Assembly: GCA_013287015.1 (NCBI GenBank) | Contig: JABDEO010000002.1 | Coordinates: 1-43,103 of the forward strand | Length of the DNA stretch: 43,103 nucleotides | Source: Chlamydiota bacterium | GTDB lineage: Bacteria > Chlamydiota > Chlamydiia > Chlamydiales > Parachlamydiaceae | Reading direction: 5' to 3' | Shown: positions 1,768 through 43,103 of the stretch, in pieces | Layout: every line of letters begins with the position of its first letter | How positions within the stretch are numbered: position 1 is the stretch's first letter | The notes under the pieces: model-generated | Databases searched by the model: none | The model's input: the letters and a program-made list of their open reading frames with translations, nothing else | Told to the model about the DNA's origin: nothing | Program-made: the position numbers and the translations under genes

Positions 1768-1795
1768 TTACCTCCATTTGCACAGCTATACTGCC

Positions 1796-1843: not shown

Positions 1844-1847
1844 GCAT

Positions 1848-2714: not shown

Positions 2715-2717
2715 GCC

Positions 2718-2996
2718 TTATCCTGTTGATATCACCCACTCGGGGAAATGCTGGAAAATATTGATGGCGAATGTCATGATTTGGGCCCCTAGCCAGCCGC
2801 CCATAAACATCAACGTCAGTGTAACGGCAACGAGTTTTATCGTGAATGACAATGTCTGTTCTTGAATCTGTGTGGCGGCCTGAAAAATAGCGACAATAAT
2901 TCCAAAAAACATACTCACCAAAATAGGAGGCGCCGATAAAATAAGAATCAGCAGCATCCCCTGATAGGCAAGTTGAATCACATGCGACTGGCCCAT
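2718..2996 (-). CDS. sctS: Type III secretion export apparatus protein SctS (CdsS/YscS/FliQ family)
   Basis: 92-aa two-helix membrane protein with a FliQ-like sequence (AATQIQEQTLSF). It lies between sctR and sctT with gaps of only 3-9 nt. Confidence 0.9.
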   Translation of the reverse strand: MGQSHVIQLAYQGMLLILILSAPPILVSMFFGIIVAIFQAATQIQEQTLSFTIKLVAVTLTLMFMGGWLGAQIMTFAINIFQHFPEWVISTG

Positions 2997-3005
2997 AACA
3001 ATCTC

Positions 3006-3884: not shown

Positions 3885-3885
3885 T

Positions 3886-5381: not shown

Positions 5382-5391
5382 CCCTTCATCC

Positions 5392-6390
5392 TCAAGTTAC
5401 ATCAACATCGCGATCCTTCGCACTCTCCTCTTCCGCAGCTTTTTCGGCCGCCCCCTTCTCTACCGGTTCCTTTGCCTCGGAAGCATCCTCCAATTTTATT
5501 GGGTGAATATGGAATAATTCTTTTATACCCCCAAATTTTCGCAATAGGGGGTATATTTTCCAAGCGCCCCATATCAAGCTTAAAAGGAGCAGCAAGATGA
5601 TTACAATAAAAGAAAAGAAAATCAATCTAAACCGGTTCAGCGACTCCTTGCCTAACGTGATGGTCCAAACAGTGATATACTGCTTGTTTTCTTCACTTAA
5701 CGCCGTGGATGTTTCATTTCCAAAATAGGGATTAGTCACCCGATCTCCAATAACGGTCACATTGTCCGGATCTAAATTTGGAACGCTGGCCGCTACGAGT
5801 CGTTTAATTTTAGTGATGAGGTGACGATTAGGATCATCCAACACGCCATTATGTTTGACATATACGGAGGTTGTGCTTTTCTTCTTGGGAGCATTCGGGT
5901 TGAGTGGATTTTCTTCTGGGAATGTAATTTGCACTTCCGCATCCAATACTCCATCAATCTTACGAATCGTGCTTGCTATTTGCTCGGCTAGACCCGCTTG
6001 ATAGCGGATTTTTTCTTGCAGCTCCGAGGGGACAAGGCCGCCGCCCGTAAATATGCCTAGCAAGTTTTGTCCTCTACGGCGAGGAAGTCCAGCCTGATTA
6101 AGAAGAGCCATCGCTTCAGTAGCTTGTTCTGTATTGACGTTAATATCCCACAAAGAAGTTTTCGATCCGCCTCCGCCTCCCGTCCCTTCCGTACTCACCA
6201 CTTTTGCGGCCTCAATCCCTTTGCTTGCCAAGAAGACGATCATTTCATTAGCGTCTTTTTCATCCAATCCATTGACAATGGTTTTGGTGGAAGAGCAGCT
6301 AGTAAAGAGAGGAATAAAAAGACAAAGAAGGAGTAAATGGCGCGCAAACCGCATCCAAGGATTTTGCATGATGACACAATTCATTCGCAT
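5392..6390 (-). CDS. sctJ: Type III secretion inner-membrane ring lipoprotein SctJ (CdsJ/YscJ/PrgK family)
   Basis: Signal peptide with a Cys (LLLLCLFIPLFTSCSS), a YscJ-family N-domain (GLDEKDANEMIVFLASKGIEAAKV), a C-terminal TM helix and an acidic tail. Alternative starts at 6369 and 6354. Confidence 0.9.
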   Translation of the reverse strand: MRMNCVIMQNPWMRFARHLLLLCLFIPLFTSCSSTKTIVNGLDEKDANEMIVFLASKGIEAAKVVSTEGTGGGGGSKTSLWDINVNTEQATEAMALLNQAGLPRRRGQNLLGIFTGGGLVPSELQEKIRYQAGLAEQIASTIRKIDGVLDAEVQITFPEENPLNPNAPKKKSTTSVYVKHNGVLDDPNRHLITKIKRLVAASVPNLDPDNVTVIGDRVTNPYFGNETSTALSEENKQYITVWTITLGKESLNRFRLIFFSFIVIILLLLLSLIWGAWKIYPLLRKFGGIKELFHIHPIKLEDASEAKEPVEKGAAEKAAEEESAKDRDVDVT

Positions 6391-8710: not shown

Positions 8711-8740
8711 CCATTTAGAGTTAAACGATTTTAAATAGCA

Positions 8741-9109
8741 GAACCAAAAGCTTGATGTCTTATTCATTTTTGCATCATTTTTTCTCTCATTATGTAGCCC
8801 ACACTAAGGTGTAGCGAGCCCTAGCGAGCGGAACCGCGGTGTGGGAATATCATGAATACACGACCTAACCAGGGACTGGTTCTTCATTTTTATCTTTTTT
8901 CCCTCTTTTTAAAATCGAAGGCTTAAATATTTTTCTGTAAAAAAAGCAAAAAAGACAAAAAAAGAAGAACTGGTCCCCAGTTAGGCTATGTATTCATCGT
9001 GTTCCCACACCTGCGGTTCCGCTCGCTTGGGCTCGCTACACCTTAGTGTGGGCTACGTAATGAGAGAAAAAATGATGCAAAAATGAATAAGACATCAAGC
9101 TTTTAGTTC
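8741..9109. repeat. Giant imperfect palindrome: arms of about 145 bp and a T/A-rich spacer of about 78 bp
   Basis: Left arm 8741-8885 (GAACCAAAAGCTTGATGTCTTATTCATTTTTGCATC...GGACTGGTTCTTC) is the reverse complement of right arm 8964-9109 (GAAGAACTGGTCC...GATGCAAAAATGAATAAGACATCAAGCTTTTAGTTC). The outer 60 bp or so are almost perfect, and several differences are T/G (wobble-compatible). Confidence 0.95.
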
Positions 9110-9145
9110 TGAAAGGATGGCATAAAAAAACAACAGTTTTTGTTT

Positions 9146-9772
9146 TTAATCGCACCCAGGATCATGGGCGGCGTTAACCACCAAAGAGGCGACAGCCCCG
9201 CCTAGTAAATTTCCTACTATGAAAATCCAGATGTTTGACCAATGGCTTAAATTGAGAATGGTTATTCCTAATGCAACCGCAGGATTAAAAGCTCCGCTTG
9301 AGATCGCTCCCACAGCATAAGCGCCTGCTAGAACTGTAAAGCCGATCGCCCACCCGAAATATGAATTTCCAGCTGTTTCTTTTACAGTAGCGACATTCAA
9401 TACAACATAACATAAGGCGAAGGTAAAAAGAAATTCCGAAAGGAGAGCTTTAAGATGATCGGGTTCAAGAGGGACCGAGGCGCGTCCTCCTTTGAGATAG
9501 ATAGTCATGAAAGCCGCAGCGGCGCCTCCCGCAAGCTGAGCGATCCAATACAACCACAGATCGCGAAGAGCCAATTTCTTGCGTAAGAAGACTGCTAATG
9601 AAACAGCGGGATTGTAATGTCCTCCGGAAATATGTCCTCCGGCAAAAACCATGACAGCCAACACGGATCCGATAGCTAATGGAGCCAACAACCCCGCATC
9701 GTTGTTAAAAACAGTCATCCCTACAGTCAAAACTAAAAAAAATGCGCCTATAAATTCGTATAGATACTTCAT
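9146..9772 (-). CDS. Aquaporin / MIP-family channel
   Basis: Two NPA boxes (HISGGHYNPAVS and SGAFNPAVA) and six hydrophobic segments. Likely start MKYLYEFIG at 9772, preceded by GGAG; the track ORF extends to 9847. Confidence 0.9.
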   Translation of the reverse strand: MKYLYEFIGAFFLVLTVGMTVFNNDAGLLAPLAIGSVLAVMVFAGGHISGGHYNPAVSLAVFLRKKLALRDLWLYWIAQLAGGAAAAFMTIYLKGGRASVPLEPDHLKALLSEFLFTFALCYVVLNVATVKETAGNSYFGWAIGFTVLAGAYAVGAISSGAFNPAVALGITILNLSHWSNIWIFIVGNLLGGAVASLVVNAAHDPGCD

Positions 9773-9921
9773 GGAAGGCTCCAGTAAATTTATTTCAATA
9801 TAAATGTTACCGCATTTTTTGCCTAAAAAAATGATGCTTGAACTCATCTTGAGCTAACCATTTTAATAAAAAAAACAACAATAAATGGAAAAAAGAAATA
9901 ACAAAAAGAATAAAAAAATGA

Positions 9922-9949
9922 TTGCATTTTTTAAAAAAAAGAATATATT
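9922..9949 (+). promoter_or_regulatory. Candidate sigma-70-type promoter for the 799-aa gene
   Basis: TTGCAT (9922-9927), a 16-nt spacer, then TATATT (9944-9949) in an AT-rich divergent intergenic region. GAGGAG Shine-Dalgarno at 9981-9986. Sequence pattern only. Confidence 0.3.
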
Positions 9950-10000
9950 GAAGAATATAGAGCCACCTCTCTTTCTAATATTAACGCGAGGAGAAAATAT

Positions 10001-12400
10001 ATGACAGAATCAAATAATGTCACTTTTTTTCCATCTAATGGCAATTTTCTTCCATCTATAGAACCTTTCCGGCCGCCTTTTTTAAAAAAAAGCACATTGG
10101 ATTATCCTCCAACTATCAACTCTTCCAAAAAATTTTCTTTTACAGCTCGACTAATAGAGAAATGCAAAAAAGACAAAAACGACATTATTTTCGCAGATTT
10201 ACAGAGCATCCAGACCGAGCGCAGCGATAAACAGAAAAAAAATAGCGGAACTCGCATCATCCTCCCAAGCTTAGCAACTGAAAATGAGCCGGAAAATGCG
10301 AGAACTTCCAGAAAAATCACATCGACCGCCGTCAAAGGACCATTGAAAATCGCACTGCAAGAAAAATCTTTTAATGAAAATAAAAAAACATCCCCTAAGA
10401 ATATTTTTTCTCCTCGAGCCGCCTCGCCTCGAAAGGAATTATCTCCAAAAAGTTTAACCTCCCCTAAAAATACTACGAGGAGAGAGAGATCGCTTTCCGA
10501 TGAGATACATTTTTTTCGACTTACTCAACTAGGGCCTCGCGGCAATTACACACGGCAATTTCAAGAATTTTTAAAATTGAGCGACACGTATAGCATTGCC
10601 AGTGAAGAGGAACAGAAACTTCTTATTAGCGACTTAAGAAAAGAAGCGGAAGCGTTGCGTAAAGAGGCTGATAGGCTCTATAACGTTTTAAAAGGCTTAT
10701 TAATGGCCGTGGACAACATACATCAAATTCCTCGCGAAAAAGAAGAGATCGGTCAATTTTCCAAAGTGTTAATCAAGCAAATTCAATTTTTAGATTTTGG
10801 TTTAAGCTTTCCACATCTGGACAAAGGCTTTGTTTCATTACGAAGAGACTATTTTTACTTTGGACATAATCACGCTCATTTTGCACGCGCCTATGTCGAA
10901 TCCCGCTACCTGAACATGCCCACGATATGGATGAAAACGGGCAGTGGAAAATCTTTTGAATATTTTTGCGGTTACACTTCCCCCGGACGAGACTGGATGG
11001 TCTGCAGCGCCTCCTATCGAGGCGCCATGTGGAAAAATACAACGACAGGCAAATATTCTATAGATAAACAACAGGGAAGCGAATGGATGGAGATCAATTT
11101 GCACAAGCCCTTGCCGATATGGAAAGATCAAAAAACCGGAGAATACGCCTGCAGTGTTTCTGTTTTGGGCGCGGATTGGCAAGAATTACAAGAAATGGAA
11201 ATCCTCCAATTACTCGCCGATGCAGGAAAAAATGTTGAAACTTTTCATCATGCTGGATTGGAAAACACTTTGAAAAAGGCCGTGGACGATGCGCTTACAT
11301 CGCCTTCTTCATCCCGTAAACTCCCTATGGTTAAAGAGACCGTCGATCAGTTGAGGGTCGCTCAAGATACGCTCAAAAGGCGACAATTAATGCAAATGCA
11401 CCTGGATGCGAAATTTGCAAAATTGTCCGTTGATTGGGACAGAGCTCCAAACGCCACGACGCTAAAAGTCGCTCGCCCGGGAACTACCAGGGAGACGATC
11501 GCATGTGGGAAAAAGAAAAGCCCGATGGAGCTTCCGTCATTTTCCCAAGTTAAGGATTATGTAACGCGGATGGGAGGAGTGGAAGCTTTCATCGATTGCA
11601 AAATGTGTTTAGAGGACCTTTTGGCTTTCTATAAATTCATAAATGCGCATCGATTCTCAGTAAAAGAAAATAATAAAGAGGCTCAATGGAGCCTTGCGAC
11701 ATGCTCTCAACTTAAACAAGCGATTCTGACTATACTGTCGACAACAAAAAAAGAGGACGCTCAAAGCAAAATGCGACATTCTATAAAATTTGCACCGGAA
11801 GTCGCGCTGGATGGAAAAATATACGAGATAAGGAACAAACAAGTAAAATATGAAACATTCAATAGGCATTTGTTAAAAATTCAAAAGCGAAGCGCGATAT
11901 TGACGTTTGAAGATTTAACGGCGATGGAAAAAATAGAAAATTGCGGAAAGCAAATCGTCAGAGCTTTTGAACGAGAACTTTGGAGAGATTGGAGTCGACA
12001 AATCGAAAAAGAAACAGCCAAGTTATTACAAGAAGAAATGCAGGGACTGCTTGACATCGAAGATTCAATGGAAACAATACAAAAAGTCGCTGAAGAACGG
12101 GTCATGAATACAATGGGGCAGGTGTACCCGATGCTTGTTTACACATTTGACGAAATACTGAACAAATTAGCTGATGAGGTTGAAGCGGGAATTCTTAATA
12201 AAAAAATAATTATAGAAGGAATGCTTCTTGAAATAGAACAGAGCATCTGGCGTAAGGAGGATGCATTAGCCGTAGAAGAACAGATGTCCGATGATTTGAT
12301 CATGGAAGGAATACAACTTCTAAAAGAAATATTCGAAAATCCTCATTTGAGAATAACGCTAGAAGGTTTTTTCCTTAAACAAGAAGTCGTCAAGCAATAG
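10001..12400 (+). CDS. Large hypothetical protein with a disordered Ser/Lys/Pro-rich N-terminal region and a coiled-coil-rich C-terminal half; candidate effector
   Basis: 799-aa ORF with a good Shine-Dalgarno. Five S-P-[KR] motifs at residues 131-156. Glu/Lys-rich heptad-like segments in the C-terminal 250 aa. No family recognised. Confidence 0.7.
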   Translation: MTESNNVTFFPSNGNFLPSIEPFRPPFLKKSTLDYPPTINSSKKFSFTARLIEKCKKDKNDIIFADLQSIQTERSDKQKKNSGTRIILPSLATENEPENARTSRKITSTAVKGPLKIALQEKSFNENKKTSPKNIFSPRAASPRKELSPKSLTSPKNTTRRERSLSDEIHFFRLTQLGPRGNYTRQFQEFLKLSDTYSIASEEEQKLLISDLRKEAEALRKEADRLYNVLKGLLMAVDNIHQIPREKEEIGQFSKVLIKQIQFLDFGLSFPHLDKGFVSLRRDYFYFGHNHAHFARAYVESRYLNMPTIWMKTGSGKSFEYFCGYTSPGRDWMVCSASYRGAMWKNTTTGKYSIDKQQGSEWMEINLHKPLPIWKDQKTGEYACSVSVLGADWQELQEMEILQLLADAGKNVETFHHAGLENTLKKAVDDALTSPSSSRKLPMVKETVDQLRVAQDTLKRRQLMQMHLDAKFAKLSVDWDRAPNATTLKVARPGTTRETIACGKKKSPMELPSFSQVKDYVTRMGGVEAFIDCKMCLEDLLAFYKFINAHRFSVKENNKEAQWSLATCSQLKQAILTILSTTKKEDAQSKMRHSIKFAPEVALDGKIYEIRNKQVKYETFNRHLLKIQKRSAILTFEDLTAMEKIENCGKQIVRAFERELWRDWSRQIEKETAKLLQEEMQGLLDIEDSMETIQKVAEERVMNTMGQVYPMLVYTFDEILNKLADEVEAGILNKKIIIEGMLLEIEQSIWRKEDALAVEEQMSDDLIMEGIQLLKEIFENPHLRITLEGFFLKQEVVKQ

Positions 12401-12443
12401 GGCGACTGGCTACCTTCCTTAGCCCTCACTTTTAATTGCACCC
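12400..12443. repeat. Solo half-copy of the CCTTCCTTAGCCCTCACTTTTAATTGCACCC cassette
   Basis: GGGCGACTGGCTACCTTCCTTAGCCCTCACTTTTAATTGCACCC matches 31612-31659, and matches 31018-31053 in reverse complement. Confidence 0.9.
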
Positions 12444-12486
12444 ATAGTTTTGGAAGAACTGGACTTGTACAAAATTTTCCGTAATA

Positions 12487-13878
12487 ATGCTTAGAATAAT
12501 CCAAAACGAGCTGAGAAAGACCTTGTTTAAAATCTTGACCCCCCCCTTATCATGCACACAGGTGTTTGATCGAAAATCTTCATTAATTCTTGTATTGCTA
12601 TGCTTGCCTCTTCTCTTCTTTCCAAAAATTAATCTAATCAAACTCTCACAAGGAGAAACAGCTGGTTTACGCATTGACGACCTCATCTTATTCTTCTTTT
12701 CGATCGTTCTCTTATGGGCTCATTTTTCTATGCGGAATTTTTTTTTTAAAATTGAATTGTGGGTGTTTGCACTCGTCTGTTTCTCATTTTTCTCTTACTT
12801 CTCTAATAAAATATTGGTTCTAATAGAGGTTTTACCTGTAAATTCGAAAATTTTTTACTGCGTCCGTATTTTCGAATATTTTTTGTTTTTCTATGTGGGA
12901 GCGATGGCCTCCCAGTTTTTTAGAGAAAATCGGATTATTAAGGCGTTTTTTATTTGGAATTTAAGTTTGATGTTGTTGCAAAAGGCCGGAGTGATAGGAG
13001 AGTTCAACTCTATGTCAGGATATAACGCCGAAGGAGCGTATCGCGTTTCGGGAATTGCATCGTTTCCATCTGAAATGGGAGCTCTTTTAAATTTGATGTT
13101 TTGTTATTTTCTTTTCGAACCTCCACAAAACGCAAAAAGTTCTTCATTGCTTCCATCGCTATTAAAAAGAATAATTCAGCGCACCTATATCTACTGGTTA
13201 TTTTTTTTATTTGCCGTTCTCGTGATTTTAACAGGATCGCGCATCGCTCTTGTTGCGCTCATCCTCCCGTTTTTCGTAAAATTAAAAGAGGAATTTCGTT
13301 CAAGGAATATAGAATCGGTCTTTGCCGCGATGTTTTTTTTGCTATTCGCTACAGCTATTTTATTTTTCTTTATTGCCAATACGGAATCCATCGCAACGCG
13401 CAGCCAGGGTTTATTATCGTGGCGCAATCTTGATTTAGTGAAAAATGTCTGGCAAGTCCAAGATATCACATTGGGATCCGATGATGTCAATGAGATCTCT
13501 TATGAAGGCTATGACTTGAGCTGGTGGATCCGCATCCATAAATGGTGCTATGCATTAAAAATGTATGTGTCGCACCCGGAAAACTATTTGCAAGGGATAG
13601 GACCTGGTTTTGCCTGGTTGGCGTTGGATGGCGGATTGTTGCGTATTTTGGTTGAATACGGACTGCTCGGCTGCGTCATTTTTTGGCGCCTTTTTCGCTC
13701 CATTTCGCAACAGAATGTACAGCTGAAATGGATGGTTGTCGCCCTAGTGATCAATATGATTTTCTTTGACAGTTATTTGGCTTATAAGCCGATGAGCCTG
13801 CTTTTCTTTGTCGCCGGATACGCCCACTCGCAGGGCGCACAGACCCGAGACAATTGCAAAAGTCTTATGCAAAGGTGA
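12487..13878 (+). CDS. O-antigen ligase family (Wzy_C/WaaL-like) polytopic membrane protein
   Basis: 463 aa with about 10-12 hydrophobic segments. It has the family-typical ILTGSRIALVALILPFF block followed by a large loop. It lies next to a wzm/wzt locus, where a ligase rather than a polymerase is expected. Confidence 0.7.
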   Translation: MLRIIQNELRKTLFKILTPPLSCTQVFDRKSSLILVLLCLPLLFFPKINLIKLSQGETAGLRIDDLILFFFSIVLLWAHFSMRNFFFKIELWVFALVCFSFFSYFSNKILVLIEVLPVNSKIFYCVRIFEYFLFFYVGAMASQFFRENRIIKAFFIWNLSLMLLQKAGVIGEFNSMSGYNAEGAYRVSGIASFPSEMGALLNLMFCYFLFEPPQNAKSSSLLPSLLKRIIQRTYIYWLFFLFAVLVILTGSRIALVALILPFFVKLKEEFRSRNIESVFAAMFFLLFATAILFFFIANTESIATRSQGLLSWRNLDLVKNVWQVQDITLGSDDVNEISYEGYDLSWWIRIHKWCYALKMYVSHPENYLQGIGPGFAWLALDGGLLRILVEYGLLGCVIFWRLFRSISQQNVQLKWMVVALVINMIFFDSYLAYKPMSLLFFVAGYAHSQGAQTRDNCKSLMQR

Positions 13879-14031
13879 GCGCTTACCCCTCTCTGTGCTC
13901 TCTGTGGGCTCTGTGGCAGCCAAAAAGCCTTAAATTGAATCATTTTAAGGCTTTATATCCACCACAGAGCCCACAGAGAGCACAGAGAGGGATAAGCGCT
14001 CACCTTTGCATATTATCCAAGACTTTTGCAA
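13854..14031. repeat. Palindromic element (arms of about 63-70 bp) with an inner CCTTAAATTGAATCATTTTAAGG hairpin
   Basis: TTGCAAAAGTCTTATGCAAAGGTGAGCGCTTACCCCTCTCTGTGCTCTCTGTGGGCTCTGTGG (13854-13916) pairs with CCACAGAGCCCACAGAGAGCACAGAGAGGGATAAGCGCTCACCTTTGCATATTATCCAAGACTTTTGCAA (13962-14031). The left arm contains the last codons and the TGA of the upstream gene. Confidence 0.95.
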
Positions 14032-16710: not shown

Positions 16711-16785
16711 ACGCTTACGGGCTCTGTGGTTGATATAAAACCTTAAATTGAATCATTTTAAGGCTTTTTGGCAACCACAGAGCGC
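16711..16785. repeat. Short palindromic element of the CCTTAAATTGAATCATTTTAAGG family, located inside the wzm-wzt spacer
   Basis: ACGCTTACGGGCTCTGTGGTTG...CCTTAAATTGAATCATTTTAAGG...CAACCACAGAGC. It shares the core and the CTCTGTGG/CCACAGAG arms with 13854-14031. Confidence 0.9.
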
Positions 16786-19480: not shown

Positions 19481-19553
19481 ATTTCTTTGATCAATTTTCT
19501 TGTTTGAGTCATATTAACTCAAACCATGGAATTCAGAATACAGAATTTAGCGT

Positions 19554-19620
19554 TTTTGGAGTCAGGCCTGACACTATGGCGCTTTTAAAAGCGTTATAGT
19601 ATCAGGCCTGACCCCAAAAA
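19554..19620. repeat. 67-bp palindrome carrying two GTCAGGCCTGAC-type cassettes
   Basis: TTTTTGGAGTCAGGCCTGACACTATGGCGCTTTT|AAAAGCGTTATAGTATCAGGCCTGACCCCAAAAA, immediately downstream of the histidine kinase stop codon. Confidence 0.95.
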
Positions 19621-23883: not shown

Positions 23884-24072
23884 CTTGTAGCGTAGACTTC
23901 AGTCTGCGCTTGTTTGCGCAGGTTTTAACCTGCGCTTGTTTTTGCGGGTTTTAACCCGCAAGTCACACTTGCGAAAAAGGCTGAAGCGTACTTTTTGCGG
24001 GTTGAAACCCGCAAAAACAAACGCAGGTTAAAACCTGCGTAAACAAGCGCAGACTGAAGTCTACGCTACAAG
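23884..24072. repeat. 189-bp palindrome whose 78-bp arms each contain two internal hairpins (branched or cruciform potential)
   Basis: CTTGTAGCGTAGACTTCAGTCTGCGCTTGTTTGCGCAGGTTTTAACCTGCGCTTGTTTTTGCGGGTTTTAACCCGCAA (23884-23961) pairs with 23995-24072. Sub-hairpins are GCGCAGGTTTTAACCTGCGC and TGCGGGTTTTAACCCGCA. Confidence 0.95.
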
Positions 24073-27202: not shown

Positions 27203-27526
27203 GCGCATTGGGGTCAGGCCTGGGCTGAAACGAATGACCGATTTTCGAAGAAAATCAGCTTGGGGTTTACCCCCTAATTTTGGCGCCGTTTTTCGACGCC
27301 AGTGAGTGGTAGGGACGATGGGGACTCAAGCGACCTTAGGGACATTAGAGACAGGGACAATCAGCTTGTTTGTCCCTGTCTCCAAGGTCCCTAAGGTCGC
27401 TTGAGTCCCCATCGTCCCTACCACTCACTGGCGTCGAAAAACGGCGCCAAAATTAGGGGGATAAAACCGGGCTGAATTTTGAAGATACTCAACCATTCGT
27501 TTCAGCCTAGGCCTGACCCAATGCGA
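27203..27526. repeat. 324-bp giant palindrome, copy 1 (arms of about 155 bp; terminal GGGTCAGGCCTG cassettes)
   Basis: CGCATTGGGGTCAGGCCTGGGCTGAAACGAATG...GGTAGGGACGATGGGGACTCAAGCGACCTTAGGGAC...centre...GTCCCTAAGGTCGCTTGAGTCCCCATCGTCCCTACC...CATTCGTTTCAGCCTAGGCCTGACCCAATGCG. The inner 100 bp or so of each arm pair almost perfectly. Confidence 0.97.
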
Positions 27527-28199: not shown

Positions 28200-28399
28200 C
28201 TCCTATGGCTTTATTTTCTTAAATCTCGCGGAACACACGTGTTTTATGTTTTAAGCGCTGTGATTATATTTCTAAATGCCGCGGTAAAAATGCAAAACAA
28301 TGTCTGTTCCGCGTTCTTTATATTACCAAACGCCGCTGGAAGGAAACAAGAATTTTATGCATTGGAGTCAGACCTGACCCCACTTTAAGTAAATCATTA

Positions 28400-28508: not shown

Positions 28509-28700
28509 ATTCAACGCAAAGGCGCAAAGACGCAAAGGCGCAAAGAATAGATTTGGCCAACTCCATTGCAAGGAATAAAAATTAATGTCAGATGAGTCTG
28601 ACTTATCCTTCCTATCCTTCCTATCCTGAAATTAATTTTTATTCCTTGCAATGAAATGAGCCGCATCTATTCTTTGCGTCTTTGCGCCTTTGCGTTGAAT
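28509..28700. repeat. Two-layer palindrome with 8-mer (CGCAAAGR) and 9-mer (TATCCTTCC) micro-tandem repeats
   Basis: Outer arms are ATTCAACGCAAAGGCGCAAAGACGCAAAGGCGCAAAGAATAGAT (28509-28552) and ATCTATTCTTTGCGTCTTTGCGCCTTTGCGTTGAAT (28665-28700). Inner arms are CATTGCAAGGAATAAAAATTAAT (28564-28586) and ATTAATTTTTATTCCTTGCAATG (28631-28653). The loop contains GTCAGATGAGTCTGAC and (TATCCTTCC)x3. Confidence 0.93.
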
Positions 28701-29555: not shown

Positions 29556-30229
29556 TTAGCCGAAATATCTTGTTGAATAGGTGGAGGAAACTCTGGCCAG
29601 ATCACGCCAATCGACACAAGCAATTTCAACGCTTCATCCACTCGCATATCGAGATGTATCAGTTGATCCTCTCGAAACATAAGCATAAAACCCATAGAGG
29701 GATTAGGCGTTCCCGGAACAAAGACCGAAATTTTGCCGATATCTTTAATGTCAGAACCCTCGGGGAGCGCTCTATGGGTCACTAAACCAATGCTCCGCGT
29801 TTTTTCATGAGGAAAAGGCGCCAGCACGACAGATGAAAAACTGGCGCCGTCTTTTGTTTTTTCCGCCAGCAACGTATGCACGACATCCTGAGTGGCCTTA
29901 TAAATGGGGCTCACCAAAGGAATGCGATGCAGAAAATAGTCTCCAACTCGACCGAAGACCCTTAAAATAACCAGTTGGGCCAAGCATCCAATCACCATAA
30001 TGACGACAATCAAGCTTACCAGCGCCACTATTTTGCTGACAAACATCAAAACCGCGGACCCTGAGAAAAATAAAATAGGTTTATTAAATAAATCATAGTA
30101 GTCGAAAGCAGTGGAAACGATGCCTACAAAGGGTTTTGTAAGGATATTAATGACAAAAACAACAATAATTATAGTGAGCGCCAGCGGAAGAAGCAAAACC
30201 AAACCAGTCAAAAAATATTTCTTCATCAC
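29552..30229 (-). CDS. DUF502-family membrane protein (paralog 2 of a tandem pair)
   Basis: 225 aa with two N-terminal TM helices, the conserved IPLVSPIYKA block and FVPGTPNPSMGF (DUF502 hallmark P-x-P-N-P-x-x-G). 4-nt overlaps with both neighbours. Confidence 0.8.
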   Translation of the reverse strand: MMKKYFLTGLVLLLPLALTIIIVVFVINILTKPFVGIVSTAFDYYDLFNKPILFFSGSAVLMFVSKIVALVSLIVVIMVIGCLAQLVILRVFGRVGDYFLHRIPLVSPIYKATQDVVHTLLAEKTKDGASFSSVVLAPFPHEKTRSIGLVTHRALPEGSDIKDIGKISVFVPGTPNPSMGFMLMFREDQLIHLDMRVDEALKLLVSIGVIWPEFPPPIQQDISAK

Positions 30230-30903
30230 ACTTCCCTTTCATTATTAGCAGGACCTTCGCCTTTATATTCTTTAAAAGGCGGCATAATCAGTCCACAGGA
30301 AATAATGTACTTGAAAGCATCCTCAACTTTCATATCCAAAGGAATAACGTCTTCTCTGTTGTATATCGTTAAAAATCCCGAAGTCGGATTGGGGGTGGTT
30401 GGAACAAATACAGCAACTAAATTTCCACCAACGCTTTGCTCTAAACCGGGCAAAGAATCGCGTGTTACAAGTCCTATCGTATACGTCTCTTGGTTGGGAA
30501 AACGCACCATTACAACTTGTTTAAATGCGCTGGTTTGTGAAGTGAAAATCGTCTTGATCACATCCTGGCAGGCCCTATATATGGGACTTACAAGCGGGAT
30601 TCGATGAATGAGATATTCCCAAAAGCGGATCATATAGTGCACAAAAAACCAGCGAGCGACAACTCCCAACAGAACCGTAAAGCCAAACAATGCTAATAAA
30701 ATCAAAGTCTGACTGAAGAAAGTCAACAGCTGTTCCGCGCTTAAAAATAAAAAACCTGTATTTAATAAGTTATAGCGACTTAAAATGGCCTGAGAAATGC
30801 CCAAGAATGGCGTTGTCAGCAAATTAAAAATAAAAGCGACCACCACCAGAGTGAGCGTGACCGGCAGAAGAATCACTAAACCGGTAATAAAATATTTCTT
30901 CAT
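30226..30903 (-). CDS. DUF502-family membrane protein (paralog 1 of a tandem pair)
   Basis: 225 aa with the same architecture: IPLVSPIYRA and FVPTTPNPTSGF. First gene of the DUF502-DUF502-holC-thioesterase operon. Confidence 0.8.
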   Translation of the reverse strand: MKKYFITGLVILLPVTLTLVVVAFIFNLLTTPFLGISQAILSRYNLLNTGFLFLSAEQLLTFFSQTLILLALFGFTVLLGVVARWFFVHYMIRFWEYLIHRIPLVSPIYRACQDVIKTIFTSQTSAFKQVVMVRFPNQETYTIGLVTRDSLPGLEQSVGGNLVAVFVPTTPNPTSGFLTIYNREDVIPLDMKVEDAFKYIISCGLIMPPFKEYKGEGPANNEREV

Positions 30904-30971
30904 TTTTTGTCCTTAAACGCTGCCCTGAGATGTGATGTGACAAACGCTCGTTCCTCGCGCTCGTCACCGCG

Positions 30972-31000
30972 TTTATAGCATATATTGAATATTTACCCAA
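30972..31000 (-). promoter_or_regulatory. Candidate sigma-70-type promoter of the DUF502 operon
   Basis: On the minus strand: TTGGGT (complement of 30995-31000), a 17-nt spacer, then TATAAA (complement of 30972-30977), about 70 nt upstream of the ATG at 30903. Pattern only. Confidence 0.25.
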
Positions 31001-31017
31001 ATACTTACAGCGCTTAC

Positions 31018-31659
31018 GGGTGCAATTAAAAGTGAGGGGTTAAGGAGGTAGCCAGGGCGTCCCGCCCTGCTTTTTAGGCAAAAAAACATTGAAGATAATA
31101 CACGCGACCAGGGCGGGACGCCCTTCCATATAACGCAGCCCTTTTGCACGTGTTATTTAACGCGAGTTTTGGGAGTTTGACGCTTTGATGCTTTTAAAAG
31201 CGCCAGGGTATTTTGGGGGTCAGGCCTGACCTGGGCTGAAACGAATGACCGATTTTCGAAGAAAATCAGCTTGGGGTTTACCCCCTAATTTTGGCGCCGT
31301 TTTTCCACGCCAGTGGGTGGTAGGGACGATGGGGACTCAAGCGACCTTAGGGACCTTGGAGACAGGGACAAATAACCTGATTGTCCCTGTCTCCAATGTC
31401 CCTAAGGTCGCTTGAGTCCCCATCGTCCCTACCACTCACTGGCGTGGAAAAACGGCGCCAAAATTAGGGGGATAAAATACGGCTAATTTTTTTCAAAAAT
31501 CAGTCATTCGTTTCAGCCCAGGCCTGACCCCAAAATACGCGCCAAAGCGTCAATGTCAGGACAATCGTTTATCCAAAACTCGCGTTATTTACAGACAAAC
31601 ACCGCGGAGCCGTAGGGCAACTGGCCACCTTCCTTAACCCCTCACTTTTAATTGCACCC
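31018..31659. repeat. Composite four-layer nested palindrome of about 640 bp; the innermost layer (31211-31537) is copy 2 of the 324-bp element
   Basis: Layer 1: GGGTGCAATTAAAAGTGAGGGGTTAAGGAGGTAGCC (31018-31053) pairs with GGCCACCTTCCTTAACCCCTCACTTTTAATTGCACCC (31623-31659). Layer 2: CCAGGGCGTCCCGCCCTG (31052-) and CCAGGGCGGGACGCCCT (31108-). Layer 3: TTATTTAACGCGAGTTTTGG... (31153-) pairs with CCAAAACTCGCGTTATTTAC (31574-31593). Layer 4: GGGGTCAGGCCTGAC...CAGGCCTGACCCC. Confidence 0.95.
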
Positions 31660-31664
31660 AGTGT

Positions 31665-32003
31665 TTACACGTCCAAGATCAACCGTATGGCATCGTCAAC
31701 AAGTTTCATCTCTTCAATTGACAATTCGCCGATTTTGTCTCCAAGCCTTTTAGTTCTATCTATAGACCTCATCTGCCTTGGAACGACTTTTCCAGCTCTT
31801 CCAGCCAAATTAATTTTCACCTCAATTTTCGAAAAAATGCGCTCTACATTACTCGTGATTGGGGCGACAACAATCAATTCAGAACGATTCGCAATGTCGC
31901 TGGAAATAATAAGACAAGGACGCGTCTTGTTTATTCCTTTACCATCAGTTGGATCTAAACGCACCCAGTAAATATCACCTCTTTTTGGATAATCATTTTT
32001 CAT
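31665..32003 (-). CDS. mazF: Type II toxin-antitoxin system toxin, PemK/MazF family endoribonuclease
   Basis: 112 aa. PKRGDIYWVRLDPTDGKGINKTRPCLIISSDIANRSELIVVAPITS is the canonical PemK/MazF N-terminal pattern. It overlaps the upstream antitoxin gene by 11 nt. Confidence 0.88.
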   Translation of the reverse strand: MKNDYPKRGDIYWVRLDPTDGKGINKTRPCLIISSDIANRSELIVVAPITSNVERIFSKIEVKINLAGRAGKVVPRQMRSIDRTKRLGDKIGELSIEEMKLVDDAIRLILDV

Positions 32004-32262
32004 TTACTGTCTGTTCTCCAAAATCAAAATCGTCCATCCCAATAAAATCTTCACCTTCAATATTAGAAAAATTTTGTTTAACTTCGATATTTCCAATGTC
32101 TTTATCAGCTTCTAAAAACTCCATTAGTAAAGTTTTTTCATCTTTCTTGAGAGCTTCCCACAAAGCCTGAGTGACGAATTTACTCATTTTACCTCGCCCA
32201 ACCCTAGTGTGTAGAGCGGCATCCAACTGCTCAGGAATTGTATATGTTACAGCTTTTTTCAT
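31993..32262 (-). CDS. Cognate antitoxin (ribbon-helix-helix-like N-terminus, acidic C-terminal tail)
   Basis: MKKAVTYTIPEQLDAALHTRVGRGKMSKFVTQALWEAL (RHH pattern), then an acidic tail (EGEDFIGMDDFDFGE). AGGAG Shine-Dalgarno upstream of the ATG at 32262; the track ORF starts further upstream at 32304. Confidence 0.75.
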   Translation of the reverse strand: MKKAVTYTIPEQLDAALHTRVGRGKMSKFVTQALWEALKKDEKTLLMEFLEADKDIGNIEVKQNFSNIEGEDFIGMDDFDFGEQTVNEK

Positions 32263-32388
32263 GATAATGTAACTCCTCTTTGCTTGAATTATACATATAT
32301 TCATATATATTTATCAAGTCCAAAGCTTGGTATATTTGAATATTTCAACATAAAAAATCCCTTCTTGGTTATAATTAATAACATCATT

Positions 32389-33801: not shown

Positions 33802-34908
33802 TTATTCGCTCGAGTGCAAAGCCCACGCTGCAACCTCTTCCTCTATAGTGTTGTAGCGCTGATAATCCTCATATTCCTCACAATTCTCAAACTCGTCATG
33901 ACCGATTAATTTTTCAATGTTTCGAAAAATGCTGCATATTTCTTCGACTTTTTCATATTCGCCATTGTAGATTATTTTATGAAGATTTGTTAGTTGCTCC
34001 GGTGTGAATTGAATGTTCGCATTCGCATTCCGTTCAACAAGTATTTTTTTTTGGCCTTCTGACAAAGTCATTTTAAAGTTTGAAACTGATGTTCGAAGCT
34101 CATTGACATCGTTGCTATCCAAAGTTTCTATTATATCCATGGCTTCGTCGGCATACAATTCAGCGAATTCCTTACCATATTGTTTTTCAATCGATTCTTT
34201 TAATTCATCAGGCAACACTTGACTGCCTCCTGTCCTATATAAACCATATAAATATTTTAAAGCTTCATCACTCTCAGCATCTTTTTTCTCCACTTTGTCA
34301 GCAAGAAAGGAGAAAAGCCCATAATAAAGCGATTTGAAAGCCTCAGACCGAATTTTTTCCGATTCGCCTTTAGTATTTATCAAAAATACCAAGTAGTAAC
34401 GACTCATTTTTTTTAATACATCGATAAGCGGTTGGATTAATGATAATTTAGGAGGAGGCTCGCTTACACTCCAGTCATCTAATACTTTTTTTAAAACCCC
34501 CAAAGCTGTTATACTTATTGGCTTTTCTGAAATACGTTCACATAAAACGCCCATATCTATCATTTTTTTATCTTCCAACCGAATTTTTTCTTCACATTGG
34601 GCGATAATTTTTTCAAATTGCTCCCTCAGCAGCGTTATTCCTACCGCTTCGGGACTTATTTTTTTCATAAACAGATTCATAAGAAATTCTTTCGATTTCT
34701 CGGAATTTACAGTTCCCGATTGCAATCCTTTAATTTTATTAATTAACTGTTCTAATGAGACTGAGACTCCTTCCATTGATTCTGATTTTTTAAACACATG
34801 ACCATGCGATTTTTCTCCGGGAGAATACACAAGTTCTGCACTGAATTTTTCTAATTGACTCCAATTTTCTATTCCTTGCAATGGGTTGTTCTCAGATATA
34901 GAAGTCAT
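33802..34908 (-). CDS. Acidic helical hypothetical protein, tandem paralog A (368 aa)
   Basis: Long ORF sharing most residues with 35123..36259, including a conserved upstream region of about 110 bp. No signal peptide, TM segment or recognisable family. Confidence 0.7.
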   Translation of the reverse strand: MTSISENNPLQGIENWSQLEKFSAELVYSPGEKSHGHVFKKSESMEGVSVSLEQLINKIKGLQSGTVNSEKSKEFLMNLFMKKISPEAVGITLLREQFEKIIAQCEEKIRLEDKKMIDMGVLCERISEKPISITALGVLKKVLDDWSVSEPPPKLSLIQPLIDVLKKMSRYYLVFLINTKGESEKIRSEAFKSLYYGLFSFLADKVEKKDAESDEALKYLYGLYRTGGSQVLPDELKESIEKQYGKEFAELYADEAMDIIETLDSNDVNELRTSVSNFKMTLSEGQKKILVERNANANIQFTPEQLTNLHKIIYNGEYEKVEEICSIFRNIEKLIGHDEFENCEEYEDYQRYNTIEEEVAAWALHSSE

Positions 34909-35122: not shown

Positions 35123-36259
35123 TCATCTTATTCGCTCGAGTGCAAGAACCCACGCTGCAACCTCTTCCTCTATAGTGTTGTAGCGCTGATAATCCTCATA
35201 TTCCTCACAATTCTCAAACTCGTCATGACCGATTAATCTTTCAATGTTTCGAAAAATGCTGCATATTTTTTCGACTTTTTCATATTCGCCATTGTTGATT
35301 ATTTTATGAAGATTTGTTAGTTGCTCCGGTGTGAATTGAATGTTCGCATTCCGTTCAACAAGTATTTTTTTTTGGCCTTCTGACAAAGTCATTCTAAAGT
35401 TTGAAAGTAGTGTTTGAAGCGCCTTGACATCGTTGCTATCCAAAGTTTCTATTATATCCATGGCTTCGTCGGCATACAATTCAGCGAATTCCTTACCATA
35501 TTGTTTTTCAATCGACTTTTTTAAAACATTAGGCAAGGCTTGACTGCCTCCTGTCCTATATAAATCATATAAATATTTTAAAGCTTCATCACTTTCAGCA
35601 TCTTTTTTTTCCACTTTGTCAGCAAGAAAGGAGAAAAGCCCATAATAAAGCGATTTGAAAGCCTCAGACCGAATTTTTTCCGATTCGTCTTTAGTATGTG
35701 TCAAAAATAAAAGGTCGAAACGAGGCATTTTTTTTAATACATCGATAAGGGGTTGGATTAATGATAATTTAGGAGGAGGCTTGCTTATATTCCAGCCATC
35801 TAATATTTCTTTTAAAACCCCCAAAGCTGTTATACTTATCGGATTTTCTGAAATACATTCACATAAGGTGCGCATATTTATCATTCTTTTATCTTCTACC
35901 CGAGATTTTTCTTCATCTTGTGTTAATGAAAGTTCAGGAAATGCTTGAGTAATGATTTTTTCAAATCTCCCTCTTAGCAGCGTTATTCCTGGCGCTTCGG
36001 GGCTTATTTTTTTCATAAACAGATTCATAAGAAATTCTTTCGATTTCTCGAGATTTACGGTTCCCGATTGCAATGCTTTAATTTTGGTAATTAACTGCTC
36101 CAATGAGACTGAGATTCCGTCCGTTGATCCTGATTTTTTGAACACATGACCATGCAATTCTTTTTCGGAGGGAGAATACTCAAATTCTGAACTGAATTTT
36201 TCTAATTGACTCCAATTTTCTATTCCCTGCAATGGGTTGTTGTCAGATATAGAAGTCAT
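35123..36259 (-). CDS. Acidic helical hypothetical protein, tandem paralog B (378 aa)
   Basis: Same family as 33802..34908. It has a 10-aa insertion (AFPELSLTQD) and a different C-terminal tail caused by a 1-nt indel near the 3' end. Confidence 0.7.
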   Translation of the reverse strand: MTSISDNNPLQGIENWSQLEKFSSEFEYSPSEKELHGHVFKKSGSTDGISVSLEQLITKIKALQSGTVNLEKSKEFLMNLFMKKISPEAPGITLLRGRFEKIITQAFPELSLTQDEEKSRVEDKRMINMRTLCECISENPISITALGVLKEILDGWNISKPPPKLSLIQPLIDVLKKMPRFDLLFLTHTKDESEKIRSEAFKSLYYGLFSFLADKVEKKDAESDEALKYLYDLYRTGGSQALPNVLKKSIEKQYGKEFAELYADEAMDIIETLDSNDVKALQTLLSNFRMTLSEGQKKILVERNANIQFTPEQLTNLHKIINNGEYEKVEKICSIFRNIERLIGHDEFENCEEYEDYQRYNTIEEEVAAWVLALERIR

Positions 36260-36456
36260 GACACCCTCCTAATTTTTACAAATGTTGAAATAATAAATAA
36301 ATATAAACAACAAACTGTATTATCACTAATCACATAATAACATATAAAAATTAAAAAACACACTTTATTATTTAAATCAGCCAATATCTAATTTTTTGGG
36401 TAATACTCCTATGCCGACACGATTGAATTTGAAACATCCCTTTGGGTACATCCTTA

Positions 36457-36691
36457 AATAACGCGAGTTTTGGATAAACGATTGCCCTGATATTGACGCT
36501 TTGGCGCGTATTTTGGGGTCAGGCCTGACACTATGACACTTTTAAAAACGCCAGTATGACACGTTTCAAAGCATCATACTGGCGTTTTTAAAAGTGTCAT
36601 AGTGTCAGGCCTGACCCCAAAAATACCCTGGCGCTTTTAAAAGTATCAAAGTGTCAAACTCACCTTTGCACGTTGTGCAAGACTTTTGCAA
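36457..36691. repeat. Mosaic repeat block: AACGCGAGTTTTGGATAAACG cassette, a 113-bp GTCAGGCCTGAC palindrome (36511-36623), a GCGCTTTTAAAAG cassette and a CACCTTTGCA...GACTTTTGCAA cassette
   Basis: 36457-36536 is the reverse complement of 31521-31593. 36511-36623 is a palindrome (TTTTGGGGTCAGGCCTGACACTATGACACTTTTAAAAACGCCAGTATGA...). 36623-36660 is the reverse complement of 31177-31213. 36661-36691 resembles 14001-14031. Confidence 0.93.
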
Positions 36692-36836
36692 TTATTTGAG
36701 GACATGCCCTTTGGTCTTTTAGGTCCTTCAGGTCCCTTAAGGTCCCTCCGTCCTTAAATTTGTTTTTTGTGTTGTGGGGAAAATGAGGATTCAGTAGAAG
36801 TAGGGGTCACCGTTTTTATTAGATGCAGGGGCAAAC

Positions 36837-38018: not shown

Positions 38019-38049
38019 ACGGAACATTTAGGCTTTTTTTATCCATTCC

Positions 38050-38303
38050 TTCGCGCAGCGTTTGGAGTGCGTGCGACTTGTCGCCGCTTTGGAAGACCTC
38101 GACTTGTCGAGGTCGAAGCGTAAATCTAAAATACCCAAAAGCTGGCGTTTTTAACGTTGAACAGGTCATATTGTCGATAGCAAAACGCTTTCCCATGTTA
38201 ACGTAAGCTAGCTTCTAGATGTTTTAGATTCACGCTTCGACCTCGACAAATCGAGGTCTTCCAAAGCGGCGACAAGTCGCACGCACTCCAAACGCTGCGC
38301 GAA
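38050..38303. repeat. 254-bp palindrome (82-bp arms, loop of about 90 bp) unrelated in sequence to the other families
   Basis: TTCGCGCAGCGTTTGGAGTGCGTGCGACTTGTCGCCGCTTTGGAAGACCTCGACTTGTCGAGGTCGAAGCGTAAATCTAAAA (38050-38131) pairs with 38222-38303. Each arm has an internal hairpin, CCTCGACTTGTCGAGG. Confidence 0.95.
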
Positions 38304-38353
38304 AGAAAAGTTAAAAAAAACTAAAATCGAATCTGTAAATCACTGCATTTTGT

Positions 38354-39532: not shown

Positions 39533-39580
39533 GAAGGAAGGTAGCCAGGGCGGGACGCCCTGGTTACCTTCCTTAGCCCT
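39533..39580. repeat. 48-bp hairpin cassette AAGGAAGGTAGCCAGGGCGggaCGCCCTGGTTACCTTCCTT, directly after the MFS-PlsC stop codon
   Basis: Perfect or near-perfect stem of about 20 bp. It shares the CCAGGGCGGGACGCCCTGG and CCTTCCTTAGCCCT cassettes with 31041-31125, 31623-31640 and 12410-12425. It probably also acts as a terminator. Confidence 0.9.
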
Positions 39581-43048: not shown

Positions 43049-43103
43049 ATAAAACGCGAGTTCTAGATAAACGAGGCCTCGTTCACCTCTCTGTGTGTTC
43101 TGT
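43049..43103. repeat. Start of another mosaic repeat, truncated by the window end
   Basis: ATAAAACGCGAGTTCTAGATAAACGA resembles the 36457/31574 cassette. CACCTCTCTGTGTGTTCTGT resembles the CCCCTCTCTGTGCTCTCTGTGG arm at 13887. Confidence 0.6.

Follow-up and report, generated by a model that had tools for sequence, protein, structure and literature searches.

How does a stretch of DNA come to hold inverted repeats inside other inverted repeats? The question is raised by 642 bp (positions 31018-31659) of a 43,103-nucleotide piece of a Chlamydiota genome (contig JABDEO010000002.1; "the window" below denotes this whole piece), which lie inside a 760-bp intergenic gap with a DUF502 gene on one side and a mazF-like gene on the other. 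An earlier note, made from the letters alone, had described this nest as four concentric palindromic layers, attributed either to repeated insertion of units into the centres of older palindromes, possibly through recognition of extruded cruciform or hairpin DNA, or to outward growth by duplication and inversion. Here we argue that the nest most probably (we put this at roughly 0.72) consists of non-autonomous transposable elements resembling MITEs (miniature inverted-repeat transposable elements), lodged one inside another in an intergenic gap, and thus belongs to a known kind of selfish DNA.

The four inverted-repeat pairs are real (Table 1) and far exceed chance expectation. The longest perfect inverted repeat of the region measures 38 nt, compared with at most 18 nt in 200 shuffled sequences. 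Folding, which the earlier note had proposed as a check, yields one giant hairpin for single-stranded DNA (-262 kcal/mol versus -91 +/- 6.5 for shuffled sequences; z = -26), and the minus-strand RNA reaches -441 kcal/mol (shuffled: -203 +/- 7; z = -34). The concentric order, however, holds for three layers and not for four: the midpoints of layers 1, 3 and 4 fall at 31338.5, 31372.5 and 31376, whereas that of layer 2 lies at 31089, far from the others. Layer 2 is therefore a pair in the left part of the nest, each copy being a hairpin by itself (CAGGGCG-TCC-CGCCCTG). The arms of layer 3 are only ~66% complementary overall, matching at their 15-nt tips and at an inner GGGGTCAGGCCTG motif and differing in the intervening ~38 nt. 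All four layers recur elsewhere in the window, as had been claimed: layer 1 as a single end at 12406-12446 (88% identical), the layer-1/2 hairpin at 39539-39580, layer 3 at 36455-36527 plus 36604-36661, and the 324-bp-type palindrome of layer 4 at 27208-27519 (91-96% identical). The open reading frames (ORFs) of the nest are short (at most 58 aa) and without homologues; a 56-aa ORF inside the 324-bp unit found none among 5.8 billion proteins.

The origin of the outermost layer can be read from its ends. Its 21-mer GGGTGCAATTAAAAGTGAGGG was searched in a species-representative collection (one genome per species, the host genome not included), where it occurs in four other genomes, all from other phyla (Acidobacteriota, Nitrospirales, Nitrospira and Coraliomargarita), and in each of them the match starts exactly where the similarity of the flanks ends, i.e. 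at an element boundary. In the metagenome-assembled genome of a Nitrospira (L005), an element of 2.7 kb (1064-3801) has the 21-mer at either end, with 21 of 21 nucleotides identical, and its ORF fragments match the ISKra4 family of transposases (NCBIfam NF033572; E = 1.1e-30 and 1.5e-21); the identity with an autonomous insertion sequence (IS) rests on this one full-length IS. Its transposase gene is split by what appears, judged by eye, to be an IS256-family element. In a Coraliomargarita metagenome-assembled genome (L006), the 21-mer marks both ends of a MITE of 195 bp (identical at the right, one mismatch at the left), whose 9-bp target duplication is perfect (GGCGGGTAG). Beside each end of this MITE stand GGTAGC and then a GC hairpin with a TCC/GGA loop, which is the arrangement of layers 1 and 2 in the window. 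The remaining two loci (L003, L004) have single ends, with no transposase beside the 21-mer.

Several further features point in the same direction. Mutator-like elements of the ISKra4 group have inverted repeats of 18-39 bp with a terminal C, generate target duplications of 8-9 bp and insert 13-17 bp upstream of sigma-A promoters (Guerillot et al., PMC3942029). The layer-1 repeats end in ...GCACCC, with the terminal C, and their 29 perfect or ~38 imperfect nucleotides fall within that range; the layer-1 type is moreover small (642 bp), non-coding and multi-copy, with further ends or remnants at 12398-12443 and 39533-39580. Its subterminal TTAAGGAGGT resembles a ribosome-binding site and occupies the same place as that of the L005 transposase gene. 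The nest is flanked by a 9-bp direct repeat in which AGCGCTTAC and AGTGTTTAC agree at 7 of 9 positions (binomial p ~1.3e-3 in this register, ~2.6e-3 if an 8- or 9-bp register is allowed). As for position, 17 nt separate the left end of the nest from the -35-like hexamer of the DUF502 gene outside it (8 of 12 positions match the consensus; background P(>=8) = 0.048), and at the 12443 end TGGACT follows at 16 nt, with a 17-nt spacer and AATAAT (9 of 12; background P(>=9) = 0.007), both being consensus matches only. The L005 element, similarly, is flanked by TTGACT on one side and TTGACA on the other, each at a distance of exactly 16 nt from its end, which gives a symmetric pair of -35-like signals. 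Overall, 5 of the 9 junctions of the layer-1 type have a promoter consensus of at least 8/12 at the offset typical of ISKra4 elements, against a background of 4.8%. Because the ends are identical to those of the L005 IS and the L006 MITE, a degenerate 9-bp repeat flanks the nest and the position appears promoter-proximal, we conclude that layers 1 and 2 are, by sequence, probably the ends of an ISKra4-type miniature element situated close behind the mazF-like stop codon and a short way upstream of the putative DUF502 promoter. Recognition of a hairpin or cruciform, which had been suggested for the insertions, is not needed for layer 1, whose position fits the promoter-proximal targeting reported for the ISKra4 group (PMC3942029).

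The layer-3 block enters this element at ~0.66 of the layer-1 sequence, beside a hairpin and not in its loop, which does not fit the proposed insertion into hairpin loops. It is one of two layer-3 frames in the window, which hold different inner palindromes at the same point: that of the 31 locus has the 324-bp unit, that of the 36 locus one of 112 bp. The arms are 95-97% identical between the two frames, yet left and right arms differ from each other. A complete element of this family is present on a 2.3-kb metagenome contig of 43% GC (L011), with ~46-nt inverted repeats (CAGGGTC...GACCCTG) and a 9-bp duplication, AGTCTGAAC. The copies in the window keep just the inner part (TAACGCGAGTTTTGGATAAAC); the outer 25 nt of the L011 element are missing, and no target duplication is seen. 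A third, diverged end is found at 43055-43072. The family may possibly be ISAs1-like, as CAGGG ends and 8-10-bp duplications would match ISAs1.

The innermost unit, for its part, was pre-formed. Both 324-bp copies show the same differences between their arms (left AGCTTGGGGTTTACCCCC, right TAGCCGTATTTTATCCCCC), so the unit diverged first and was then copied whole; it did not grow in place. Its ends start with (T)TTGGGGTCAGGCCTG, and the same motif starts the ends of the 68-bp (19553) and 112-bp (36511) palindromes. Within the 324-bp arms, GGGAC/GTCCC motifs are iterated at a spacing of ~9-20 nt (31300-31360, 31395-31440) and recur as GGTCC(C) beside the 36-locus layer-3 frame (36715-36755); they resemble multiple protein-binding sites. 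The claim that separable units were formed first and nested afterwards is thus borne out by the transposon ends of layer 1, by the layer-3 frame with its two fillings and by the shared arm differences of the 324-bp unit, while outward growth by duplication-inversion is contradicted for layers 3 and 4, where corresponding arms of different copies are more alike than the two arms of one copy.

Beyond the window, the exact 19-mer TTTTGGGGTCAGGCCTGAC of the GGGGTCAGGCCTG-ended family was found in 17 metagenome contigs of 36-68% GC, several of which are estimated to be chance matches, and at none of these 17 loci was a flanking transposase found. L007, L008 and L022 have short palindromic elements that share these ends and differ in their interiors; in L012, L013 and L017 (61% GC) the motif appears in reverse arrangement, in L009 and L016 as the uninterrupted 18-bp palindrome, and in L011 and L014 as a single end beside non-palindromic sequence. 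At 249-300 of L012, from a 61% GC organism, a palindrome of 70 bp is built from the motif in its reverse arrangement (GTCAGGCCTGACCCCAAAAGAG...), and L013, which shares its left flank, has an IS4-family element (483-2050; NF033592, E = 1.4e-60) inside a GTCAGGCCT|GAC motif; the far flank of that element does not continue the palindrome, so that it says nothing clear on targeting. Target duplications were seen in none of five independent elements of the family (none of six with L029). Scans of viral contigs with the layer-1 21-mer and the core 19-mer gave no matches, and blastn of both element ends against plasmids gave no useful match.

Related genomes add a historical dimension. In L025, L026, L028 and L029 (MnmE 76-78% identical) the order thioesterase/holC/two DUF502 genes on one side and mnmE/metK/NFACT on the other is kept; in L030 (75%) thioesterase/holC and mnmE/metK are kept, with DUF502 and the variable gene lost, and around mnmE the genes of L024, the closest relative (82%), and of L027 (77%) stand in another order. 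The gap between the divergent DUF502 and mnmE genes is a variable spot, occupied by another gene in each of L025, L026, L028 and L029. In the window (30904-32388) it holds mazEF and the nest, in L025 a 511-aa ORF (2353-4188), in L028 a ubiquitin-like 273-aa ORF (2861-3953), in L029 a 451-aa ORF (8367-10000) and in L030 nothing. Neither the layer-1, the layer-3 nor the 324-bp repeats occur in the contigs of these seven relatives (L024-L030), and the search there for intermediate nesting states, in particular for an outer layer without the inner ones, returned none. Since the repeats are missing from the relatives, the three families expanded in the lineage of the window, including the organisms of L011 and L014. 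The orthologous gap upstream of DUF502 in L029 does hold a ~100-bp element (8436-8526) with ends aattGGGGTCA(T/C)GCCTGA, 70 nt from the start codon; these ends (GGGGTCATGCCTGAT / GGGGTCACGCCTGAC) are not self-complementary. With the TATAAA behind it, the outer end of this element (CATGACCCC) could act as a -35-like box.

Taken together, these data suggest the following course of events. A miniature derivative of an ISKra4-group element (Mutator-like, DDE), with terminal inverted repeats and subterminal GC hairpins, would have been mobilised in trans by a transposase whose gene lay elsewhere, and would have landed at a point 5 nt past the mazF-like stop codon and 17 nt upstream of the -35 box of DUF502, duplicating a 9-bp target. 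Its interior would then have received, or may already have carried, a member of the layer-3 family, which in turn holds a third, pre-formed palindromic unit of 324 bp between GGGGTCAGGCCTG ends; the route could have been successive insertion of non-autonomous elements or recombinational exchange between them at shared ends. As every element is itself an inverted repeat, nesting automatically gives concentric palindromes, and recognition of cruciforms is unneeded. In a gene-dense genome an existing element may be among the few harmless landing sites for a new insertion, and the nest probably serves no function for the cell.

Some observations weigh against this account. No transposase of any kind is encoded within the window, and an autonomous partner in the host lineage is unproven, the 21-mer being absent there from the species-representative collection. 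The flanking 9-bp repeat is imperfect (7/9), and in an 8-bp register just 2 of 8 positions agree. The promoter-like site of DUF502 has a weak -35 (3/6), was not flagged by a stricter scan and is suggestive only. Inside the nest, clear target duplications were found around neither layer 3 nor layer 4; the GGGGTCAGGCCTG-ended family as a whole lacks duplications and hence may not use classical DDE cut-and-paste. A second full GC hairpin (31108) and a collapsed third (31613) are unexplained by a simple single-element model. Finally, the order of the nest interior depends on a single assembly: independent Logan contigs (run SRR8433575) are 100% identical to both flanks of the nest and end within the 29-nt outer repeat on each side, and exact-protein look-ups of the flanking genes led only to Logan contigs that end in this repeat. 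A chimera of multiple displacement amplification or of assembly was considered and rejected, as the palindrome arms are merely 87-89% complementary and not perfect.

Where the nesting took place is the sole point on which the closest alternative differs from this account: the 642-bp mosaic would be a single mobile unit, assembled elsewhere by insertions or repeat recombination and brought here in one ISKra4-type event. The only recognisable target duplication indeed flanks the whole nest, with none visible around the inner layers, and both outer repeats carry the variant GGGGTTAAGGA, as opposed to GGGCTAAGGA in the other layer-1 copies (12 and 39 loci), as sister ends of one element would. No second composite copy was found in the window or in any fetched locus, however, and the inner units also stand independently elsewhere (27203, 36455, 19553), so that we regard this possibility as unlikely. 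In-situ growth, with the layers made here by inverted duplication or hairpin-templated repair and extending outward, would explain why the inverted repeats run a few locus-specific bases past their GGGG ends (GCATT at 27203; GTATTTT at 31211) and why the nest at 13866-14012 has a symmetric tandem expansion of CTCTGTG on both arms. It is very improbable given that the arms within a copy are 87-89% complementary, compared with ~96% identity (and the same asymmetries) between corresponding arms of different copies, that the layer-3 arms, with ~66% complementarity between them, reach 95-97% identity with their counterparts at the 36 locus, and that layer 1 matches transposon ends from other phyla. 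We consider it equally far-fetched that the nest is a selected cis-regulatory or RNA element, e.g. a terminator or insulator separating mazEF from the DUF502 operon, or else a substrate made of long double-stranded RNA. The genes on either side of the region do share a strand, hairpin 1 and the T-run after it look like a terminator on the plus strand, and the minus-strand RNA is predicted to fold extremely stably; but both flanking genes are on the other strand from that hairpin, none of the Rfam families reaches threshold, the region is wholly missing from syntenic relatives, and its parts are dispersed repeats with transposon ends.

For the innermost layer, the idea of insertion into palindrome centres deserves separate weighing. 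The 324-bp unit sits exactly between the two halves of an 18-bp palindrome, GGGGTCAGG|CCTGACCCC, as expected if a recombinase or an enzyme of HUH or IS110 type recognised GGGGTCAGGCCTGACCCC and integrated at its dyad, although the halves are explained equally well as the terminal inverted repeats of the unit itself. All five inner units of the window (68, 112 and 324 bp) lie between such half-sites, the uninterrupted palindrome stands alone at 28362-28381 (degenerate) and in L009 and L016, two different inner units are found in the same layer-3 frame, target duplications of the ordinary kind are missing from the family, and palindromes of the repetitive extragenic palindromic (REP) type are known IS targets (PMC1525189). 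The 31 locus, where the left junction has five extra bases (CCTGA) relative to the 27203 copy, can moreover be read as a unit CCTGGGCTG...CAGCCCAGG bounded by the 5-bp direct repeat CCTGA within an otherwise intact palindrome. The same facts follow, however, if the half-sites are shared terminal repeats; the 27203 copy is without the 5-bp repeat, L011 and L014 have the motif as a single end beside non-palindromic sequence, and no gene for a candidate enzyme is present in the window. The L029 ends, which occur in a form that is not self-complementary, fit a terminal repeat, and the terminal-repeat reading is favoured on this sequence evidence. Dyad targeting thus appears quite unlikely. Its broader version, in which the (T)TTGGGGTCAGGCCTGA(C)-ended repeats would form a widespread, undescribed miniature class whose units are integrated at existing dyads by a hairpin-recognising enzyme of HUH/Y1 or IS110 type, is more speculative still and decidedly unlikely, although such repeats do range from Parachlamydiaceae-like genomes to organisms of 61% GC. 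If it were true, palindromes would really grow from the centre. We thus prefer nested miniature elements as the explanation of the locus.

Table 1. Positions of the nest, its component repeats, their further copies and the adjoining genes (coordinates of the window)
Feature	Position	Strand	Remarks
Layer 1 inverted repeat	31018-31046 / 31631-31659		29 nt, 100% complementary; ~38 nt with 2 mismatches and 1 indel
Layer 2 inverted repeat	31054-31069 / 31109-31124		16 nt, 100% complementary
Layer 3 inverted repeat	31158-31172 / 31573-31587		15 nt, 100% complementary
Layer 4 inverted repeat	31223-31371 / 31381-31529		149-nt arms, 89% complementary
Putative 9-bp target-site duplication, left copy	31009-31017		AGCGCTTAC; degenerate
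Candidate left terminal inverted repeat, ISKra4-type miniature element (layer 1)	31018-31055	+	21-nt match to IS/MITE ends
GC hairpin 1	31053-31069	+	CAGGGCG-TCC-CGCCCTG, then CTTTTT; subterminal in layer-1 element; terminator-like
GC hairpin 2	31108-31124	+	Inverted copy of hairpin 1, loop GGA, off-centre; 100% identical to 39545-39561
Layer-3 left arm	31158-31210	+	TAACGCGAGTTTTGG + GAGTTTGACGCTTTGATGCTTTTAAAAGCGCCAGGGTAT; matches 36604-36661 (95% identity; reverse orientation)
324-bp-type palindromic element (layer 4)	31211-31537		Arms 31223-31371 and 31381-31529; ends TTTTGGGG(G)TCAGGCCTG
Layer-3 right arm	31538-31587	-	Reverse complement: TAACGCGAGTTTTGGATAAACGATTGTCCTGACATTGACGCTTTGGCGCGTA; matches 36455-36527 (97% identity); homology with the L011 MITE in its end region
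Collapsed GC-hairpin remnant	31613-31625		TAGGGCAACTGGC; adjoins right terminal repeat; shared with single layer-1 end (12398-12410)
Candidate right terminal inverted repeat, ISKra4-type miniature element	31622-31659	-	Ends 5 nt from mazF-like stop codon
Putative 9-bp target-site duplication, right copy	31660-31668		AGTGTTTAC; degenerate; overlaps stop codon of mazF-like gene
Promoter-like site of DUF502 gene	30972-31000	-	-35 TTGGGT 30995-31000, 17-nt spacer, -10 TATAAA 30972-30977
DUF502 gene	30226-30903	-	
MazF/PemK-type toxin gene (mazF-like)	31665-32003	-	Followed by putative antitoxin and mnmE
Single layer-1 end	12398-12443	-	16 nt upstream of promoter-like TGGACT-17-AATAAT before ORF 12487-13878
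68-bp palindromic element	19553-19620		Ends GGGGTCAGGCCTGA(C); no target duplication
Second 324-bp element copy	27203-27526		Outside layer-1/layer-3 frames; own short outer inverted repeat (AAGCG..CATT)
Uninterrupted degenerate core palindrome	28362-28381		TTGGAGTCAGACCTGACCCC
Second layer-3 frame	36455-36661		Opposite orientation; holds 112-bp palindrome 36511-36622 (49-nt arms, 100% complementary)
Minimal layer-1/2 hairpin element, internal remnant	39533-39580		AAGGAAGGTAGCCAGGGCG-GGA-CGCCCTGGTTACCTTCCTT; without terminal 21-mers

The host is Parachlamydiaceae-like, as indicated by its type III secretion cluster and its MnmE matches. The cluster (1848-6390) has the order sctJ, unknown gene, sctL, sctR, sctS and sctT, which we take to be the chlamydial arrangement, and the best named relatives of MnmE are a 'Parachlamydiaceae bacterium' and 'Candidatus Protochlamydia' (72-74% identity; best match overall 82%). 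Neither tRNA nor tmRNA genes were found; the whole window yielded no Rfam match at gathering thresholds, and a permissive scan of the nest gave sub-threshold matches only, to generic hairpin (miRNA-precursor) models. Intergenic palindromes are abundant throughout the window (8739-9111, 13866-14012, 16721-16783, 19553-19620, 23884-24072, 27203-27526, 28509-28700, 36455-36661, 38026-38327 and 39533-39580). The window contig itself terminates inside a layer-3-type repeat (43049-43103), and this repeat, together with the layer-1 repeats (31018-31047 / 31631-31659), fragments short-read assemblies of the host.

A second "Russian doll" is found at 13866-14012, a 147-bp palindrome with 73-nt arms (90% complementary) that carry the same tandem CTCTGTG expansion on both sides. 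Its inner 65-bp unit also stands alone at 16719-16783, and the layer-3 frame has the outer module of this doll (CACCTTTGCA...AAGACTTTTGCAA) beside it, both at 36660-36700 and in L011. The gap between metK and NFACT is filled in the window by a 302-bp palindrome (38026-38327; 121-nt arms, 88% complementary); the two genes overlap in L028, and L025 has a smaller, different palindrome (7114-7240) and a longer NFACT gene (465 aa versus 299 aa). Finally, two tandem paralogues of 368 and 378 aa (33802-34908 and 35123-36259), with a low GC content of 33-36% and no match in Pfam or NCBIfam, are absent from the syntenic L025, L028 and L030 and may encode lineage-specific effector-like proteins.

Environmental chlamydiae are usually thought to have compact, repeat-poor chromosomes. 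The chromosome studied here is densely loaded with miniature transposons of various kinds, at whose repeats its contigs break, and its gene order differs from that of L024 and L027. The nest accounts for assembly breaks, and the variable gap between DUF502 and mnmE is a spot useful in strain typing. The identity of the 21-nt layer-1 end across other phyla would point either to recent inter-phylum spread or to a very tight constraint by the transposase, and the layer-1 type gives independent insertion sites that fit the promoter-proximal targeting reported for the ISKra4 group. On present evidence, the nest reveals no new recombination mechanism. Its repeat families, the ISKra4-derived miniature element and the occurrence of the latter in chlamydiae appear to be undescribed, while nested MITEs as a kind are already known. 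A literature search for chlamydial MITEs, nested bacterial MITEs and ISKra4 MITEs gave no direct precedent, and to our knowledge no ISKra4-derived MITE has been described.

Among the known systems, two candidates were rejected. An integron attC (VCR, Vibrio cholerae repeat) site, which would have RYYYAAC ... GTTRRRY core sites and an intI nearby, is contradicted by the closest candidate, CTCGCGTTATTTA, which gives GTTATTT and breaks GTTRRRY; there is no cassette array or integrase, and the neighbours are housekeeping genes. As to a Tn3-derived inverted-repeat miniature element (TIME), which would have inverted repeats of ~38 bp with a GGGG start and a 5-bp target duplication, the ends of the 324-bp unit (GGGGTC start) presumably resemble the Tn3 repeat around TG.AACGAA. 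The TIME reading was nevertheless dismissed, as the unit has no 5-bp duplication; in each of its two copies the 5 bp outside GGGG...CCCC are reverse complements and not direct repeats (GCATT/AATGC; ATTTT/AAAAT), as they also are at the 68- and 112-bp units.

With insertion sequences of the ISKra4 group (p-MULT 4; PMC3942029) the nest shares the 21-nt end identity (with L005), the 29-38-nt inverted repeat with its terminal C, the 9-bp flanking repeat (degenerate in the nest, perfect in the L006 MITE) and the distance of 16-17 nt from promoter-like sites. It differs in having no transposase gene, in its 642 non-coding base pairs, in an interior made of other repeats, and in its chlamydial host, as Chlamydiae are not among the p-MULT 4 phyla listed in that study. 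The GGGGTCAGGCCTGA(C)-ended units, for their part, recall REP sequences and the REPINs formed by pairs of them, whose transposase is the REP-associated tyrosine transposase (RAYT; Y1/HUH) (PMC3116915, PMC2817692, PMC3733652), in that they are intergenic, consist of two inverted, hairpin-capable motifs around a spacer and lack target duplications; such a pair is present at 19553-19620 and 36511-36622 and in L007, L008, L022 and L029. Whereas a REP sequence is a palindrome of 20-40 nt tagged at one end by the tetranucleotide GTAG or CGTC (PMC3733652), however, the motif (T)TTGGGGTCAGGCCTGA(C) carries neither tag at its ends, and no RAYT gene is present in the window. REPINs are, furthermore, mostly lineage-specific and vertically inherited, whereas the same 19-mer occurs in organisms of 40-61% GC. 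Insertion sequences that target REPs (IS1397, ISKpn1, ISPpu9/10; PMC1525189, PMC12288879) are a known case in which mobile DNA enters repeated palindromes at their centre, as the earlier note had envisaged for the nest, but those are full ISs with known transposases and defined insertion points, while the "target" in the nest may be the element's own ends.

The closest parallel in kind is offered by short palindromic intergenic repeats that form variable mosaics. These include MITEs nested in MITEs, the bacterial interspersed mosaic elements (BIMEs) of E. coli and the Correia elements of Neisseria. The REP-BIME background is given elsewhere (PMC2817692, PMC3333891). Like these, the nest is composed of non-coding, palindromic, intergenic repeats in a variable mosaic, unit within unit; its sequence families are not those described for other bacteria, and it differs further in stacking at least three unrelated families, one of which is traceable to a specific IS family.

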